Below, in pieces: positions 15,001-24,000 of a stretch of 44,741 nucleotides of DNA. Source of the DNA: Meiothermus sp. (lineage in GTDB: Bacteria > Deinococcota > Deinococci > Deinococcales > Thermaceae). Every line of letters begins with the position of its first letter. Positions within the stretch are counted from its first letter, which is position 1. The stretch is taken from the NCBI GenBank assembly GCA_033762915.1, contig JANRLD010000076.1, positions 1 to 44,741 of the forward strand. The letters are read 5' to 3'. Made by a program: the position numbers.

Positions 15001-18000
15001 AGCGTTTGCAGACCTCCCTCAGCCCATCAGAGCGGAAAGTCGCGGAAGCGGTGATGGGTCAGCCGCAGGTGGTATTGCGCCTGAGCATCTTGGAACTGGC
15101 CGCGCTGGCTGGGGTGAGTGAGCCCACCATCATCCGCTTTTGCCGAAAACTGGGCTGCGAAGGGTTTCGGGATTTCAAGCTGATCCTGGCGCAGAACTTG
15201 GTTTCCACCGAGACCTACGGCAGCATCGCGGTGACCCCCGAAGACTCAGCGGCAGACCTGGTCTCTAAGGTGTTCAACTCCACCATCGAAAAGCTGGCCC
15301 GCATTCGCGGGATGCTCGACCATGCCACCCTTGAGCAGGCCATCGAGGCGCTAACTAAAGCGCGTAAGGTGGAGTTTTACGGGCTGGGGTTTTCTGGCAA
15401 CATCGCCGTGGATGCCCACCATAAGTTTTTTCGCTTGGGCATACCTTGCATCGCCTACACCGAGGCCGCGATGCAACTGATCTCGGCTAAAACCTTGGGA
15501 AAAAAAGATGTGGTGGTGGCCATCTCCAACAGTGGGGGCATCAGCGAACTGCTCAAGAGCGTGGAAGTGGCCAGAGAGGCTGGGGCCACTGTTATCGGCA
15601 TTACTGCCAGGGGCTCAGCTTTGGCCAAGCTGTGCAGCATCGCGCTGACGGTGGAGCCACTCGAGCAGAAGGATGTGTACTCGCCCATCATCTCTCGAGT
15701 CGCACACCTGCTGGTTGTGGACACCTTGGCGGTCGCGGTAGCCCTGCACACCCCCACAGCCCACGCATCGGGTCGTCCAGCAAAAACCAAAAAAGCCGGT
15801 TAGTTGCCAAAGTTTGCACGATCAACAAAGTCAACACAGGTGTTGCACCCTGACCGATAACTTCAGCAGGGGCTGATCGTGTTTCCCACCATTACCTCCC
15901 TCGAGGTGGCAGGTAATCTACCCCCTATCGCGTTTCCCACCCACACTCCGCCCACAGTGCCGCGCTAAAGCGGGTGCTAAAGCGTGCGCTAAAGCGGAGA
16001 TTCTGTTGGCGAAGTCGGGGTGCAACTCGAGAAGTCGTGTCTTCATCGGTATCTCAATCCTCGCTTTATCACCCAGATTTGGAGTTCGCCAACAGAATCA
16101 GCGGAGTAGTGCGCTTGGTCCAGCAAAAACCGCCGTACCGAGTGTTCGTGGGAACCGCTCTACAGCAAAAACCGCCCGCTTTAGCGCCGTAGGGAGTATG
16201 CGTGGGAAACGCTCTGACACCTTTGGCTTCCTTTGACCTGACTGAACCTGATTTCACTTGCCCCTTTCCCCCTCTATTTGTTCGAAAAATCCGCTCACCA
16301 GGCAATTCTAGTACGTAACGACATACCCCCCTTTACAAGACAACATTTGAATGCTACTATTCTCGATGTAGCATTCAAATGCTACTAATCGGTGCCCTTC
16401 AGAAGGTACTACGAACTTTGACAAATAAGCCTTGGTCGTCGGTGTTCCAGTTTCGACGGATACCGAAAGCGCCGTTGGCGCGTCACGGGTCAAGAGTCAG
16501 GACTCGAGAGCTAGAAGCAGCTCGAGGCCCCAGACTCCCGGCTCGAGACGGCGCGAAGCGCCCAGGAGACGTGGGTAGTAAGCCCCACTCGACGACCTTT
16601 ATCACGGGCTGTTGGTGTCAACGGCAGCACGGCGCTCTCCAAAAGCGTTGGTTCTGGTTCAAATCCAGAGCAGCCCGCCAAAAGCGCCACCTGCTGGGGT
16701 GGAAATGCTATCAATCGCAAAGTGGTCGGGGCTATGCCCTAGAGCTACGCCCCAACCCCTGTGCGATTCCGTGGAGTAGCTCAGCTAGGAAGAGCCCTGG
16801 TTCGGGATACCAGAGGTCAGAGGTTCAAATCCTCTCTCCGCGACCATTTGGGTACGAGGTTGACTATCGGTTGGTCACGCCTCTGTGTAAAAGAGGAGCC
16901 CTAAAAAGCCCCTGTAGGTTCAATTCCTACCGTACCCACCAAAAGCGCCAGCCCCTAAAGCTGGAGATGCTATCAACCGCAACGCGGCCCGGCTGGTCCG
17001 GTCACCCCTGCGCGGTAACGCAGAACTGGTGTAGTGGCAACACGCGACCATCCCAAGGTCGGGTTGCAGGTTCGATTCCTGCGTTCTGCTCCATCGCGGA
17101 AATAGCTCAGAGGAAGAGCACTTCGTTGCCAACGAAGAGGCCGGGATTTCAAGACTCCCTTTCCGCACCATGCTTCGGTAGCTCAGAGGTAGAGCACCTG
17201 TCTGAAGAACAGGGGGTCGGTAGCTCAAAACTGCCCCGAAGCGCCAAGAGGGCTCCGTAGCTCAACGGCAGAGCGCCCCGTTTGCACCGGGGAGGCTGGG
17301 GGTTCAAATCCCCTCGAGTCCACCAGCACAACCTGTAGGGACGCGGTACCCTGCTTCGCCGCGAAATGGCTCCATAGTGTAGAGGATTGCACGCCACGTT
17401 GTCCGCGTGAGGGCGGGGGTTCGATTCCCCCTGGGGTCGCCATGATGGGAAGTCGTCTAAAGGCAAAGACGTCTGACTCTGACTCAGAAAATGTTGGTTC
17501 AATTCCAGCCTTCCTAGCCAAAACGAAAACGAGAATGCCGCCGCACCGGGCGGCATGTTTTCGAGTTCGGTGCCATCGTCCAGCGGGCAGGACGTCACGT
17601 TCTCAGCGTGAAGACAGGGGTTCAAATCCCCTTGGCATCTCCAGAAGGGCTCGAGGGACGCCTTGCTCGAAATGGTGAGGGCGAGCCCTTGCCGGAATCG
17701 AGGGTTTGTGCTAAAACTGTAAGGCTGATTTGAGCCTTATAGGCTCCCGAACGGCCCCATCGTCTAGTGGTTAGGACGCCGCCCTCTCACGGCGGTAACA
17801 GGGGTTCAAATCCCCTTGGGGTCACCAGCGCACAATCCAGACGGTCTACCTGCCTCGCCCAAAGCGGGGCGGTTGACTTGTGTACGGCGTGGGGGCAAAC
17901 AGCCGATCAGACGGCTAAAGGTTCAAACCCTGCGTTCCCTGCCATTGGAAGTGACGCCGAATTGGCTAAGGCACCCGTCTTGAAAACGGACAGTCCTCGA

Positions 18001-21000: not shown

Positions 21001-24000
21001 GTGGAGGAGTCGGGCGATTTCCTCCGCACCCCCACCAGCCAGTACCCCGTCCCCAAGATCGTCCGCGTCAAGAAGATGATCCGGCCCCGCTTGCGCGGAC
21101 TGCGTCTGAGCCGCCGCAACGTCTTCCGGCGCGACGCCCACACCTGTGCCTACTGCGGCAAGCGCACCTCAGACCTGACCCTCGACCATGTAATTCCGCG
21201 CTCGAGGGGCGGCAGCAACACCTGGGACAACCTGGTCTCGGCTTGCCAGAGCTGTAACCACCGCAAGGCCGACCGCACCCCCGAGGAGGCGGGCATGAAG
21301 CTCCTCCACAAGCCCGCCAAGCCCAGCCAGAGCGTGTGGCTGGACATCCTCGAGGTGCCCCGCGAGTGGAGGGTGTACTTCGGGGCGTAAAGGGCGGGTG
21401 TAGGGCGTAAAGTGCAAGGAATCTTAAGGGCCTTTGCATACCCTTTTGCTCTTCGCCCTATACCCGCGCTCCTAGGCTGCGCTAAACCGGCTTCTTCCCC
21501 AAAGAGAGCCGTCGCGGCCTGTAAAGATCGTCATCAAAGCCATCGATCTCGAGGCGAGGGCGAACTCGAGGCTTCCCGAAACCCCACATAACCCACCGAA
21601 CCCAAGCCCATCGGCTACCCTGTTACCAAGGCCGCCTACAGCAACCAGACTCCTCCACTTGGGGTTACACTGTGCGGCCTGTTCTTTTGGGTGCCGAGCC
21701 GAAACAGAGGCCGCGCACAGCAAAAACCCCCATTCCCTTTTCAGGAAAGAGCATGCGGCCTGAAGGAGCACAGCTATGAACTTTCTCGAGCTTATGAACC
21801 AGGCCCAGGCTGCTGCCACCTGGAACGGCGCGCTCAGTCACGCCACCAGTGGCAGCGAGCTGGTAGACCTCTACTACCGAGCCGTGCGCGTGCCCGGCTC
21901 GGGCAAGGGTTTCCAGCACGGCGAGTATGTGCCCAAGCAGTTCCTTAGCTACCTCGCCAAGTCCTGGATGGTGAGCCCCGAGGCCGCACTACGCCTGCTG
22001 TTCCACTTGCGCGATGTGCGCGAGGGCAAGGGCGAGCGGGCCATGTTCTATGCGGGCATGGTCTGGCTGGCCAAGACCGACTTGGGGCTGTTCCTCCGCG
22101 CTCTAGCCCTGGTGCCCGAGTACGGCGCATGGAAGGACGTGCTCGAGATCGCCGTCCTCCTCGGCGACGAGCGCGTGACCGCCGAAGCGGTGCGGCTGTT
22201 TGTTCGGGCCCTTCAGGACGGCGACGCCCTGGCCCACCAAGCCGGTCGCCCCGGCGACGCGGCTCTAGCAGCCAAGTGGGCCCCCAGCGAGGGCAAGCGC
22301 CTCGACCGCGCCCTGGGTTTCGTCGAGCGCGTGTGCAAGGCCGCCGGCTGGAGCCGCAAGACCTACCGCGATACCCTGGTGGCGCTGCGGCGGGTGGTCG
22401 AGACCCCCATGAGTGCACGCGAGTGGGAGCGCATCGAGTACGCCCACGTGCCCGCCAAGGCCATGTTGACCTACAACAAGGCTTTCGAGCGCCACGCCCC
22501 CGAGGCTTTCAAGGGCTACCTCGAGGCCGTCCGGAAGGGCGAGGCCAGGATCAACGCCGCTGCCCTGATGGCCCACGAGATCGTGGCGAGGTGGTTCTCC
22601 GGAGCCCTGGGCGAGGCCGAGGAGTTGCAGTGGCGGGCGCTGGTCGAGCAGTATGGCGCCAGCCTCGAGAACACCCTCTGCGTGGTGGACGTTTCTGGCT
22701 CGATGCAGTCGGGCTGGGGCCGGGTCAAGCCCATCCACGTGGCGCTGGGCCTGGGTCTGCTGGCGGCCCACGCGCAGAAGGGCGTGTTCGCGGGCGCCTT
22801 CGTCACCTTCAGCGCCCAGCCCACCCTGCAGCGCGTCAACCTGCGGGCCAGGCTGGCCACCCAGCTCCAGAGCATGAACACCGCCGCCTGGGACATGAAC
22901 ACCGACATCCAGGCCGTGTTCCAGCTGATCCTGGACACCGCCCGGGCCAACCGGCTGCCCCAGCGCCAGTTGCCCCGGCGCGTCCTGATCTTCAGCGACA
23001 TGCAGTTCGACCAGGCCACCGGCGGCAACCAGCTCACCAACTTCCAGAAGGCCCAGCGGGACTTCGAGCGGGCGGGCTATGTGCTGCCCGAGCTGATCTT
23101 CTGGAACGTCAACGGCGCGACCGCCGACTTCCCCGTCCAGATGCACCAGAGCGGCGCGGTGCTGGTGTCGGGCTGGAACCAGACCCTCTTCAAGGCCCTC
23201 TCGCAGAACCGCATCGTCGACCCCCTGCAGATGGTGCTCGAGATCCTCGGCAAGCCCCGCTACGACGCGGTGGGCAAGCTGGTCGCGTGACCCGAGTGGG
23301 GTCCATCGATTCCCCACAGTAACCCCAAGCCCCGTACAGCAAACCTCTAAACTCGGGTTAGGCCGAAAGGCTGCCGGTTCAAATCCAGCGAGATGGCTCG
23401 CGCCATGAAAGGGGCTTGTGATGGGGCCTTGCTCGCGTAGGGAGATTCATGAGCTACAAATTGCCCTCGAGGCAGGACGCGAACTGCGTCCTGCCTTTTT
23501 TCATGGCTTGACCGGGGCGGCTTCGAACTCGATGGGGGTGTGTTCGGAGAAGCCGCCGGTGGTGAGCATCTCGAACTTGATGCTGTCCGGGCTGGCGGTG
23601 CCCTTGTAGCTGTGCTTTAGCTCGCGGGTCTCGCTCGCCCCGCCCAGCGACTCCTGCGTCTTGACCACGAAGCGCAGGGTGTCGCCCTCCATCCGGCCCT
23701 CGAGGATGGCCCGCCGCACGCCCAGGAACGAGGCGGTGCCGCTCAGCTCCTTGCCCTCGAGTTTGAAATTGAACTGCTCGGTGCGGCTCACCCCCCAGTC
23801 GTAGCGCACCTCGGCCCGCCATACACCCGAAACGTCCATCGTGGGTGCGGTCCTGGCCTCCTCGCTGACCCCGAAGAACTTGTTCCACAAGTCCATGATC
23901 GAGTCCAGGTTGCCCGCTGCGCCTCCCGCCGTCGCCAGCACCGCGATGGCCGCCACCCCGTAGCGGCGGTACTTCATCCACGGCTTGGCCTTGCTCGCCT

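Follow-up and report, generated by a model that had tools for sequence, protein, structure and literature searches.

A phage-type tRNA array with short leucine tRNAs, an HNH endonuclease gene and a Ro60-like gene in a Meiothermus genome

In Meiothermus sp., a bacterium of the Deinococcus-Thermus group, about 37 tRNA genes that look functional form a phage-style block beside a nuclease gene and a gene for a Ro-like RNA-binding protein (Table 1). In the explanation that we consider probable as a whole, the island (approximately 16330-23500 of the window, that is, the entire 44,741-nucleotide contig analysed) would consist of two phage-type modules that became joined. The first, a long tRNA array, would be one of the horizontally spread "L-array / tRNA array units" and include the HNH endonuclease typical of them; it seems to be transcribed from a promoter in its leader, with a palindromic operator overlapping that promoter. 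The second would comprise a Ro60-like ring protein (DUF2828-vWA) and, encoded on the same strand, three small Y-RNA-like hairpins. The array tRNAs would be functional molecules maintained by selection, the five leucine tRNAs among them would descend from old short-Leu lineages travelling with phage and mobile-element arrays, and some or all of the array may by now be needed by the host. What is new here is that the array contains the single tRNA-Trp of the assembly as well as a tRNA-Glu(CUC) of host type, which is gone from its native site.

Table 1. Features of the island, in window coordinates.
Feature	Position	Strand	Details
Promoter-like site, array leader	16332..16381	+	TTTACA, 17 nt, TACTAT; TG before second hexamer (promoter scan)
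tRNA array	16606..20702	+	37 cloverleaf tRNA genes, all 20 amino acids, and 2 tRNA-like genes; ~9 genes per kb
tRNA-Trp(CCA)	16606..16680	+	first array gene; sole Trp tRNA found in assembly
tRNA-Glu(CUC), host-lineage type	17753..17827	+	92-96% identical to chromosomal tRNA-Glu(CUC) of genus relatives
tRNA-Ser(UGA)	17947..18033		45.9 bits, Rfam tRNA model
CAU tRNA gene	18517..18590		cloverleaf fold
Type I (short-arm) tRNA-Leu(GAG)	19481..19558	+	78 nt; relaxed-threshold ARAGORN; folds like its paralogues; covariation
Type I tRNA-Leu(CAG)	19585..19660	+	no encoded CCA; ARAGORN, Rfam
Type I tRNA-Leu(UAG)	19743..19820	+	78 nt; ARAGORN, looser scan
tRNA-like gene	19838..19918	+	7-bp acceptor stem, A73-CCA, 4-bp T arm; "Pyl CUA" by relaxed ARAGORN
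Type I tRNA-Leu(CAA)	19924..20001	+	78 nt; ARAGORN, looser scan
Type I tRNA-Leu(UAA)	20005..20081	+	77 nt; ARAGORN, Rfam
tRNA-like gene	20211..20328	+	acceptor, D and T arms normal, CCA encoded; 42.8 bits with the tRNA model of Infernal
HNH endonuclease gene	20731..21390	+	219 aa; Pfam HNH_5 2e-17, HNH 3e-15
Y-RNA-like hairpin 1	21630..21679	+	stem GGCCGC/GCGGCC, ACAGCAA directly after 5' strand
Y-RNA-like hairpin 2	21709..21760	+	stem and motif as hairpin 1; ends 15 nt before Ro-like start codon
Ro60-like protein gene (DUF2828 helical ring and vWA domain)	21776..23290	+	504 aa
Y-RNA-like element 3	23326..23418	+	closing stem CAAGCCCC/GGGGCTTG, ACAGCAA, GCCGAAAG
Intrinsic-terminator-like hairpin and T run	23469..23497	+	end of Ro-like unit, right island edge

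ARAGORN called 34 tRNA genes in the array, all on the + strand, and 31 places exceeded the gathering score of the Rfam tRNA model; a looser scan added Leu(UAG), Leu(CAA), the CAU gene, Pro(UGG) and Tyr. Across the whole assembly Infernal gave 79 tRNA matches, 35 on the array contig and 44 elsewhere. Ser(UGA), the CAU tRNA and Leu(GAG) lie beyond ARAGORN's 34 and bring the cloverleaf genes to 37. The preliminary description had counted 37-38 tRNA genes that together serve all 20 amino acids, and ARAGORN, Rfam, Infernal and the folds agree with it, as do model scores or cloverleaf folds for the genes that it had added (these three and the insert-bearing gene at 20211-20328). The tRNA-like gene at 19838-19918 is one more, absent from that list; its interior holds a GAGA..TCTC hairpin followed by TAACAGCGAA. 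In the gene at 20211-20328, about 50 nt with a GAGA..TCTC hairpin and TGACAGCAAACC stand in place of the anticodon arm, where ARAGORN forced a 42-nt "intron", and the two tRNA-like genes have a 14-nt motif in common (2 matches versus 0.03 expected). CCA, earlier described as encoded throughout the array, is encoded in 34 of 35 array tRNAs, Leu(CAG) lacking it, and in 42 of 44 chromosomal tRNAs, so that an encoded CCA is no sign of foreignness.

Are these genes still maintained? In six gap-free orthologous pairs with 126 stem pairs, 89 were unchanged, 30 showed compensatory changes, 6 were changed on one side and 1 was broken, a pattern of covariation that shows structural selection on the array tRNAs. 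We think it very improbable that the array is a decaying relic, or that its Leu-anticodon genes are not leucine tRNAs at all but uncharged, mischarged or used outside translation. Such a view could draw on L-arrays being poorly transcribed or cryptic, with 3 of 26 Anabaena array genes pseudogene-like (in passages of PMC8421152), on the two aberrant array members, on the CCA missing from Leu(CAG) and on a D-stem mismatch in three Leu genes. Against it, 30 compensatory changes face 1 broken pair, 94% of cells are paired in the short Leu genes, whose Leu identity nucleotides are invariant, the assembly's only tRNA-Trp is in the array, and passages of the same source have 23 of the 26 Anabaena array tRNAs aminoacylated in vivo. 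A perfect 14-nt palindrome (inverted repeat, 16344-16357 / 16368-16381) overlaps the promoter-like site, and leader segments 16344-16460 and 16554-16591 align with the leader of an array in Calidithermus (71% and 84%, respectively). We infer a promoter/leader function for 16332-16381, from which the array may be expressed.

As described earlier, the five array Leu genes are 76-78 nt long with a variable loop of 4-5 nt and A73, whereas five Infernal-supported chromosomal Leu genes measure 85-87 nt; array Ser genes (87 and 88 nt) and array Tyr (92 nt) keep long arms. Leu(GAG) is a paralogue of Leu(UAG) and Leu(CAA) within a repeat family, and Leu(UAG) is 81% identical to its Calidithermus orthologue with six compensatory stem changes. 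Among 13 short Leu genes from four sources, 94.1% of cells are paired versus 57.7% in shuffles, and 20 of 21 stem pairs vary on both sides; a C-C mismatch occupies the D stem of three of the five array genes, and pair 11-27 is unpaired in 6 of the 13 sequences. Invariant throughout are U8, A14/15, G18G19, A35, U48 and A73, in agreement with the E. coli Leu identity set as given in part of PMC9976931. The array Leu tRNAs retain the nucleotides that bacterial LeuRS is known to read (A73, U8, A14/A15, U48 and G18G19), from which we infer that they are probably charged with leucine. Sections of PMC6614811 report a natural type I tRNALeu charged by a bacterial LeuRS; they also report a Streptomyces type I tRNALeu charged neither by E. 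coli LeuRS nor by one Streptomyces LeuRS, so charging by the LeuRS of the array host is not assured.

What led to the loss of the arm in leucine tRNAs? In 31 non-redundant phage or mobile-element arrays, nearly all chosen via one HNH family and hence not descriptive of all phage arrays, 41 of 68 Leu genes do not exceed 80 nt; in the same arrays Ser genes are at least 84 nt in 45 of 46 cases and Tyr genes at least 82 nt in 26 of 26. The Ser and Tyr tRNAs would retain long arms since the corresponding synthetases require them. It is possible, though we doubt it, that the short arm has no function of its own and that arm deletions were tolerated, because bacterial LeuRS does not need the arm, and became fixed in fast-evolving, size-limited phage genomes. 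The review PMC9976931 excludes the long arm from E. coli Leu identity, describes an arm-less minimal tRNALeu that is still charged, and makes arm size the main Ser identity element, which fits the 45 of 46 long Ser genes; Leu lengths are moreover graded, and of the 20 arrays with a short Leu gene, 13 have long ones too. However, the loop varies only between 4 and 5 nt, U48 is invariant, and two short-Leu body types, with D regions GTGAYGG..ACCT and GTAGCCCAA..GAGGC, are common to the array bacterium, Calidithermus, a Mycobacterium plasmid, Felix O1 and many IMG/VR contigs, which points to old conserved lineages and not to repeated recent decay. The proposal that the leucine tRNAs had been rebuilt gives way to one of descent from such lineages, in which the long arm would have shrunk to the 4-5-nt loop with no rebuilding in the present host.

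Pfam matches bear out the HNH and DUF2828/DUF7788-vWA genes that had been placed after the array. The Ro-like protein matches DUF7788 (2e-52), DUF2828 (7e-44) and phrog_850 (1e-110), its residues D305, S307, S309, T376 and D408 are MIDAS-type invariants, and its AF2 model (pLDDT 86) has Ro60, Rsr or TROVE structures as all of its top 11 PDB matches; as modelled, the DUF2828 protein has the Ro60 fold. Element 3, beside it, contains a T-arm-like hairpin (23373-23389) and a small hairpin (23393-23406). The format of hairpin 1, a stem with ACAGCAA, also adjoins phage DUF2828 genes: 11.2 kb beside such genes hold 17 ACAGCAA motifs, 14 with the stem, versus 25 motifs and 11 with the stem in 291 kb elsewhere; in 877 kb of arrays that lack DUF2828 the corresponding counts are 53 and 10. 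YrlA-model matches lie downstream of DUF2828 in two phage loci; the Y-like elements of the window matched no Rfam family. Element 3 folds modestly better than shuffles (z -1.85), and the region upstream of the Ro-like gene no better (z -0.37). By analogy with Ro60, which binds Y RNAs, the Ro-like protein most likely binds the adjacent Y-RNA-like hairpins, which are likelier partners than the array tRNAs. Of its suggested role as a chaperone for the leucine tRNAs, the Ro60 fold stands, but the gene is adjoined by Y-RNA-like hairpins of its own and is absent from the Calidithermus array. To the right of the island, genus relatives have sequences homologous to 23641-24272. The G+C of the HNH gene (0.656) and of the Ro-like gene (0.681) is host-like (host 0.649) and so does not allow a donor to be named.

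These observations bear on a further idea, which we regard as unlikely, that a type I form would hide the leucine tRNAs from those nucleases or modification enzymes of the host that read the long arm, with the Ro-like protein as chaperone and the array as an anti-defence device. Mycobacterial arrays are discussed as putative anti-defence systems in part of PMC12803027; the human antiviral nuclease SLFN11 makes contact with the variable arm of type II tRNA-Leu and is less efficient at cutting a version without it (passages of PMC11615386); phage arrays are enriched in short Leu genes (41 of 68), whereas Ser and Tyr genes keep their arms; and Felix O1 combines a Ro-like gene, an array and short Leu genes. 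Yet DUF2828 was matched in none of 28 whole records of arrays (positive control, 4 of 4), and six of seven virus records at least 90% complete, all without DUF2828, carry short Leu genes. Short Leu genes do recur in phage arrays such as that of Felix O1, as had been described, but the tie to TROVE genes fails. Nor does the nearest related array have a Ro-like gene, and the Y-like hairpins adjoin the Ro-like gene itself. Leu lengths run continuously from 73 to 88 nt with 14 genes at 81-83 nt, which relaxed constraint would also give, no bacterial nuclease reading the Leu arm was found in the present analysis, and the array is chromosomal with apparent housekeeping for Trp.

That last point concerns the host. 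No CCA anticodon occurs among the 44 Infernal tRNA matches outside the array contig, a Trp tRNA pattern search gave one match in the assembly (the array gene) and one in each of three relatives, and the gene is absent from the native tRNA-Trp locus of the assembly. Similarly, the native Glu-Val pair keeps Val(UAC) and lacks Glu. Contigs from four metagenome runs carry, in the same context, a relative with about 96% identity. With the only tRNA-Trp and a relocated host-type tRNA-Glu(CUC) inside it, the array looks domesticated, and the host would rely on part of it, although a native tRNA-Trp could lie in a gap of the assembly, a 95.5% complete draft in 119 contigs. An apparent lack of tRNA-Arg(UCU) from the assembly was rejected as an assembly break.

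The unit, 37 genes within 4.1 kb on one strand followed by an HNH gene, is of a known kind, the HNH-linked, horizontally spread "L-array / tRNA array unit", and HNH is a conserved neighbour of such arrays in the relevant parts of PMC8421152, PMC5966550 and PMC12803027. The phage or mobile-element character proposed earlier is supported by HNH relatives in Mycobacterium plasmid and IMG/VR arrays and by the Felix O1 trio: over 178 nt, the HNH DNA shares 76.5% identity with the HNH gene of an array that is carried by a Mycobacterium intracellulare plasmid and also has short Leu genes, and HNH relatives sit in 34 of 80 IMG/VR loci with at least 10 tRNAs. Contrary to the earlier statement that other Deinococcota lack a counterpart, a collinear array and HNH, a counterpart in gene order, lie at another genomic site in Calidithermus chliarophilus DSM 9957 (leader, Phe-Ala, Gln, Asn, Arg, Cys-Ile, Leu genes, Ser and HNH; HNH protein 63% identical). 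This closest related array is without a Ro-like gene, whereas in phage Felix O1 a Ro-like gene, an array and HNH occur together as here, with Leu genes of 78, 78 and 79 nt.

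The window comprises contig C76 in full (44,741 bases). The tRNA array and the short leucine tRNAs claimed for this contig in the preliminary description were both confirmed. ARAGORN identified 34 tRNA genes and three further cloverleaf genes bring the total to 37, which serve all 20 amino acids; two aberrant tRNA-like genes come in addition. With 34 genes from ARAGORN and 37 in all within 4.1 kb, the density is about 9 genes per kb. The Rfam tRNA model reached its gathering score at 31 places on the window, and Infernal returned 79 tRNA matches in the whole draft assembly (5.38 Mb, 119 contigs), 35 of them on this contig and 44 on the others. 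Two relaxed ARAGORN calls, 17847-17924 (Thr) and 16389-16467 (Leu AAG), were left out of the gene count. Downstream of the array lie a gene with the HNH motif domain that characterizes HNH endonucleases and, after it, a gene for a DUF2828-vWA protein, here termed the Ro-like protein.

Features of the tRNA array, the Ro-like module and their surroundings
Feature	Position	Strand	Remarks
Repeat of ~300-340 bp	15873-16217		between RpiR gene and array leader; 20-nt inverted ends at 15930-15949 and 16193-16212
Promoter-like site	16332-16381		TTTACA-17-TACTAT, overlapping a perfect 14-nt palindrome
tRNA array	16606-20702	+	34 genes (ARAGORN)
Paralogous spacers	16700-16730, 16962-16992		after tRNA-Trp and tRNA-Tyr, respectively
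Terminator-like hairpins	17540-17554, 20182-20202, 23469-23497
tRNA-Glu(CUC)	17753-17827
Ser(UGA)	17947-18033	+	cloverleaf gene beyond ARAGORN's 34
CAU tRNA gene	18517-18593	+	cloverleaf gene beyond ARAGORN's 34
Leu(GAG)	19481-19558	+	cloverleaf gene beyond ARAGORN's 34
First aberrant tRNA-like gene	19838-19918
Second aberrant tRNA-like gene	20211-20328
HNH gene	20731-21390		starts 29 nt past final tRNA; PF14279 63 bits, PF01844 57 bits (Pfam)
Upstream hairpins of Ro-like gene	21630-21679, 21709-21760		closing stem, ACAGCAA right after its 5' strand
DUF2828+DUF7788/vWA (Ro-like) gene	21776-23290	+	downstream of HNH gene (Pfam)
Downstream element of Ro-like gene	23326-23418		closing stem and ACAGCAA in the same format
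ORF	23501-24223	-	weak Replic_Relax match (E 0.005); overlaps the Zn-ribbon gene
Zn-ribbon gene	24028-24279	-	small nucleic-acid-binding protein, PF09855, 9e-24

The five leucine genes of the array are 76-78 nt long, with a variable loop of 4-5 nt and A73, and the serine and tyrosine genes beside them retain their long arms; the five chromosomal leucine genes supported by Infernal measure 85-87 nt. Are these short genes real tRNAs? In a covariation alignment of 13 short leucine genes, drawn from the window, Calidithermus, a Mycobacterium plasmid and phage Felix O1, 94.1% of the cells of a type I cloverleaf were paired, versus 57.7% after shuffling and 35-48% when the partners were slid. Both sides have changed in 20 of the 21 pairs, and six of the 13 sequences have a mismatch at one and the same D-stem pair. 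With a leucine anticodon, a variable loop of 4-5 nt and a cloverleaf backed by covariation, these genes are type I tRNA-Leu in structure. Invariant in all 13 are U8, A14/15, G18G19, A35, U48, the T loop and A73, and the accessible text of PMC9976931 gives the same nucleotide set as leucine identity in E. coli, where the arm itself is dispensable.

The short form is not peculiar to this contig. Our length survey started from 165 loci plus Felix O1, with at least 10 tRNAs in 40; nine near-duplicates (L002, L112, L113, L120, L123, L132, L142, L143 and L155) and three copies of the window were removed, and 31 arrays were kept. Among the 68 leucine genes of these arrays, nearly every one of which was reached via one HNH family, 41 are at most 80 nt, 14 are 81-83 nt and 13 are at least 84 nt long. 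Serine genes in the same arrays measure at least 84 nt in 45 of 46 cases (the exception is a doubtful 70-nt call) and tyrosine genes at least 82 nt in all 26. Short leucine genes occur in 20 of the 27 arrays that have any leucine gene, seven of which have short ones only, and two D-region body types recur across hosts. The arm-less form is thus the majority form in the sampled HNH-linked arrays of phages and mobile elements, from Salmonella to Mycobacterium to Deinococcota hosts, and the structural selection on it in these arrays is clear.

We found nothing on short leucine tRNAs of phages or arrays in the literature searched, a scope that stops short of supplements and subscription journals, and no paper pairing "Type I tRNALeu" with "phage" was found. 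The accessible texts of PMC8421152, PMC5966550, PMC12803027 and PMC4758250 do not mention such tRNAs, and "Leu" has no occurrence in the main texts, supplements aside, of PMC5966550 and PMC8421152. The only published bacterial exception that we came across is one Streptomyces gene: according to the accessible text of PMC6614811, in which phages have no occurrence, the natural type I tRNALeu of Streptomyces coelicolor is charged by its own LeuRS and not by that of E. coli.

What does the short form go together with? It had been tied to TROVE neighbourhoods, and that link is refuted. None of 28 array records, each searched in full, has a DUF2828 match; they include seven virus records of at least 90% completeness, a whole plasmid and the Calidithermus genome. 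The same search was positive in four of four controls; short leucine tRNAs are therefore a trait of these arrays and not of TROVE neighbourhoods. An anti-defence role had also been proposed, with the Ro-like protein as chaperone of the short tRNAs. SLFN11 reads the arm of type II tRNA-Leu, as the accessible part of PMC11615386 describes, and by analogy it is possible that loss of the arm would serve such a role, although nothing in our analysis supports it.

The array, read earlier as being of a phage or mobile-element kind, belongs to a known kind: HNH-linked arrays appear in what is accessible of PMC8421152, PMC5966550, PMC12803027 and PMC4758250. It has the at least 20 tRNA genes and at least 2 genes per kb of a tRNA array unit as the accessible text of Tran et al. 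(PMC4758250) delimits it, and it is long, on one strand, horizontal and sporadic, with a linked HNH homing-endonuclease gene, as are the L-arrays of PMC8421152 in its accessible text; it was found in none of 30 relatives. The same portion of that source ascribes to L-arrays supernumerary redundant tRNAs, induction on translational stress and aminoacylated tRNAs. No RNA run is listed as containing the stretch. Most anticodons of our array are redundant with the host set; for Trp(CCA), Glu(CUC) and Pro(GGG), Infernal supports no chromosomal copy in the draft. Neither encoded CCA nor G+C content was upheld as a mark of foreign origin.

Relatives of the array were found through its HNH gene, the core of which has 76.5% DNA identity to the HNH within a 28-gene array on a 324-kb plasmid of Mycobacterium intracellulare, where Leu(UAG) is 78 nt and Leu(UAA) 77 nt long. 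Its best protein relative (63%) follows a 17-gene array in another member of the Deinococcota, Calidithermus chliarophilus DSM 9957. The leucine genes there measure 76, 78 and 77 nt; the array stands at another site, between ADH and RlmN, and is collinear with the window's from leader to HNH, with 70-85% identity in tRNA genes. A search of the whole Calidithermus genome found no DUF2828 gene with the array, and so the conserved unit consists of leader, array and HNH. Among 126 stem pairs in six gap-free orthologous tRNA pairs from the two arrays, 89 are unchanged, 30 have compensatory changes, 6 have one-sided changes and 1 is broken, from which it follows that both arrays have been maintained as folding tRNAs. 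Searched as DNA against phages and plasmids, the whole island matched at single tRNAs and the HNH core only. No tRNAs lie near the HNH relative on a Rhodococcus plasmid (L005), and tRNA linkage as a property of the HNH family in bacterial chromosomes was ruled out (3 of 80 loci).

There are signs that the host has come to depend on the array. The array tRNA-Glu(CUC) shares 92-96% identity with its chromosomal counterpart in genus relatives, where this gene lies directly upstream of tRNA-Val(UAC); in this genome the Val gene is on contig C15 and the Glu gene is absent there. None of the 44 chromosomal tRNA matches (Infernal) has a CCA anticodon. The anticodon-loop and T-arm pattern of tRNA-Trp was found in this genome in the array gene only and, in each of three relatives, in one chromosomal gene. 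The native locus in relatives reads PfkB - tRNA-Trp - MgsA, and at the PfkB-MgsA site of this genome (C38:6770-9907, L196) there is a 3.1-kb segment with no tRNA. This segment holds a gene for a 778-aa molybdopterin-binding dehydrogenase and a 189-aa ORF. The absence of Trp from a draft calls for caution, because a similar impression for native tRNA-Arg(UCU) was withdrawn when it proved to be an assembly break, with the 5' half at the edge of C12 (C12:16-57) and a 3' half on C16 (C16:1380-1425). In the relative G003 an intact tRNA-Arg(UCU) gene lies 8 kb from a lone 3' half; this is the pattern that an element integrated into a tRNA gene leaves. A relative ~96% identical is present in contigs of four metagenome runs, each from a different study, and since one 7.5-kb contig covers window positions 17795 to 25375, the island has the same surroundings there. 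The genome, at 5.38 Mb, compares with 2.4-3.7 Mb in 18 genus relatives; its stated completeness is 95.5% and its contamination 0.51%.

The island is flanked on the left by an RpiR regulator gene and on the right by the Zn-ribbon gene, a GFO/IDH oxidoreductase gene and LptF/G. Joined flanks marking an empty site occur in none of 30 relatives, among which neither the left flank (RpiR, ABC transporter) nor the GFO/IDH gene is conserved, and no contig joins across the island. Homologues of the Zn-ribbon gene and of the ORF overlapping it are found in some genus relatives, which places both outside the island. The repeat between the RpiR gene and the array leader has at least 8 further copies on other contigs of this genome (85-95% identity) and many variant joints inside it, seen in metagenome contigs; it looks like a miniature mobile element. 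Within the array, the two paralogous spacers (81% identity over 31 nt) contain GATGCTATCAA and may be internal promoters or processing signals. In the related strain of metagenome run X1, 218 nt are absent at 20479-20698, removing the region of the third Lys gene, and several 1-nt deletions are spread over 20179-20379; this end of the array is more variable than the rest.

Is the DUF2828-vWA protein related to Ro60/TROVE proteins, as had been proposed? The fold says yes and the sequence does not. An AlphaFold2 model built from 41 homologues (pLDDT 86, pTM 0.83) has Ro60, Rsr or TROVE structures at all of Foldseek ranks 1-11 in the PDB (E 1e-7 to 1.5e-5, TM up to 0.61), and the modelled protein has the ring-plus-vWA architecture of Ro60, helical repeats closed by a vWA domain. 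Pfam gave no match to the TROVE model, with only DUF7788, DUF2828 and VWA_2 at E up to 0.01, and phmmer against the PDB found no Ro60; there is thus no sequence match to TROVE or a solved Ro60. Residues D305, S307, G308, S309, T376 and D408 are invariant in the 41 homologues, which is the MIDAS pattern (DxSxS, T, D), and the vWA domain is accordingly predicted to hold a MIDAS-type metal site. The protein matches phrog_850, "RNA-binding protein", over its full length and has relatives in 695 phage records. Proteins 94%, 77% and 70% identical to it exist; genome contigs yielded no close relatives of the gene, and viral and metagenome contigs only relatives of 32-37% identity.

Ro60 proteins bind Y RNAs encoded beside them (accessible texts of PMC4201824 and PMC12135203), and on that analogy the three candidate hairpins next to the Ro-like gene would be its likeliest ligands. 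The downstream element has a T-arm-like hairpin and a small hairpin, lacks a D arm, and contains GCCGAAAG, in agreement with the motif GNCGAAN0-1G that Chen et al. give in the accessible text of PMC4201824. Mycobacteriophage Kingsolomon, Felix O1 and metagenomic phages likewise have the stem with ACAGCAA next to their DUF2828 genes, and the motif is strongly enriched there. In 11.2 kb near DUF2828 genes, 14 of 17 ACAGCAA motifs have the stem, versus 11 of 25 in 291 kb elsewhere in the same loci and 10 of 53 in 877 kb of arrays without DUF2828. The Y-like elements of the window matched no Rfam family, and membership in YrlA (RF02553) was rejected: the model, made up of a Ro-binding stem and T, acceptor-like and D stem-loops, has no match in 23200-23600 at E up to 10, and its sole match in the window (23.6 bits) lies inside tRNA-Gly. 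Directly downstream of the DUF2828 gene in two phage loci (L190 and L194) it reaches 38-40 bits versus a gathering score of 69. In Felix O1 (L185), four hairpins of the form GAAGACC...ACAGCAA...GGTC, at 10767, 10934, 11388 and 11475, lie in tRNA spacers directly downstream of the Ro-like gene. At locus L001, a 70-nt "tRNA-Ser(ACU)" called by ARAGORN (9648-9726) just upstream of the DUF2828 gene overlaps a stem with ACAGCAA and is probably a Y-like RNA, not a tRNA.

Each of the two aberrant tRNA-like genes combines a proper acceptor stem with A73-CCA and a T arm, and has inside it a GAGA..TCTC hairpin followed by TCTCTRACAGCRAA, a motif with 2 matches versus 0.03 expected. The "CUA anticodon" called in the first gene falls inside this motif. 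An amber suppressor was rejected for that gene, as the CUA belongs to a motif common to both genes and the D and anticodon arms are poor. The two genes may be Ro ligands, decayed tRNAs or something else.

Can these observations be joined? One combined reading, which we put forward as improbable in its entirety, has three parts: that the host entrusted some of its core decoding to a phage tRNA array that it captured (its only tRNA-Trp lies there, as does a native tRNA-Glu(CUC) that has moved), so that a mobile array would now be essential; that type I tRNA-Leu would be a widespread, old adaptation of phage and mobile-element arrays by which leucine decoding survives factors reading the long arm of type II; and that the two aberrant genes, with their Ro-hairpin motif, would be Y RNAs in tRNA shape, ending at the acceptor stem and with a Ro module replacing the anticodon arm, tying the Ro-like protein to the array.

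We consider four points to be new: the breadth of type I leucine tRNAs in phage-type arrays, a member of the HNH-linked array kind in Deinococcota, the signs of host dependence on the array, and, for the Ro-like proteins of the DUF2828 branch, a Y-RNA-like motif. The arm-less tRNAs form a large set from nature with which to ask what purpose the long arm serves and by which synthetases and nucleases it is read, and they offer a concrete test of whether phage tRNAs are shaped for escape from tRNA-directed defence. If array copies have replaced the native tRNA-Trp and tRNA-Glu(CUC), as appears to be so, this would be a rare instance in which a mobile array entered the core translation set of its host. 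The hairpins with stem and ACAGCAA open a way to the RNA partners of the Ro-like proteins in the large DUF2828 branch (those 695 phage records).

Among known systems, the L-arrays and array units, as far as the accessible texts describe them (the trn operon of Anabaena PCC 7120, the Mycobacterium units and the Acidithiobacillus arrays), share with the window dozens of densely packed tRNA genes on one strand, horizontal spread, HNH as conserved neighbour and tRNAs mostly redundant with the host's. The window differs in carrying a Ro-like gene, in its apparently non-redundant Trp(CCA) and host-type Glu(CUC), and in its host phylum, which is new for the kind: in the accessible text of PMC8421152, Deinococcus-Thermus stands among the phyla that have accretive arrays only. 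The type I tRNALeu(CAA) of S. coelicolor (PMC6614811, accessible text) is likewise bacterial with a 5-nt variable loop, and coexists with type II leucine tRNAs, one LeuRS charging both; however, it is a single chromosomal gene outside any array, whereas all five leucine isoacceptors are type I here, and A73 is no identity element for it.

The Ro60/Rsr systems compared were Rsr-Yrn1 of D. radiodurans, Rsr-YrlA of Salmonella and Ro60 with Yrl1/Yrl2 of Thermus phage phiLo (PMC4201824 and PMC12135203, accessible texts). The Ro-like protein is DUF2828/DUF7788 rather than TROVE and has 11-16% identity to solved Ro60 proteins; no Rfam Y-RNA model matches its RNAs, a D arm is missing from them, and their ACAGCAA motif is absent from the Rfam YrlA consensus. 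Nevertheless, the helical-repeat ring capped by a vWA domain is common to both by fold match to the model, small structured RNAs are encoded beside the gene on the same strand, and one of the window RNAs has the T-arm-like hairpin and GNCGAA-type motif of known Y RNAs. Felix O1 (NC_005282) is a lytic phage genome and the window a chromosomal island, DNA similarity between them is limited to single tRNAs, and in the phage the Ro-like gene precedes an array with interspersed HNH genes and with Y-like hairpins in its tRNA spacers. Both nonetheless have a DUF2828 "RNA-binding protein" (33% identity), a tRNA array (~22-25 genes in Felix O1), HNH genes, short tRNA-Leu (three annotated in Felix O1, at 78, 78 and 79 nt) and stem-and-ACAGCAA hairpins.
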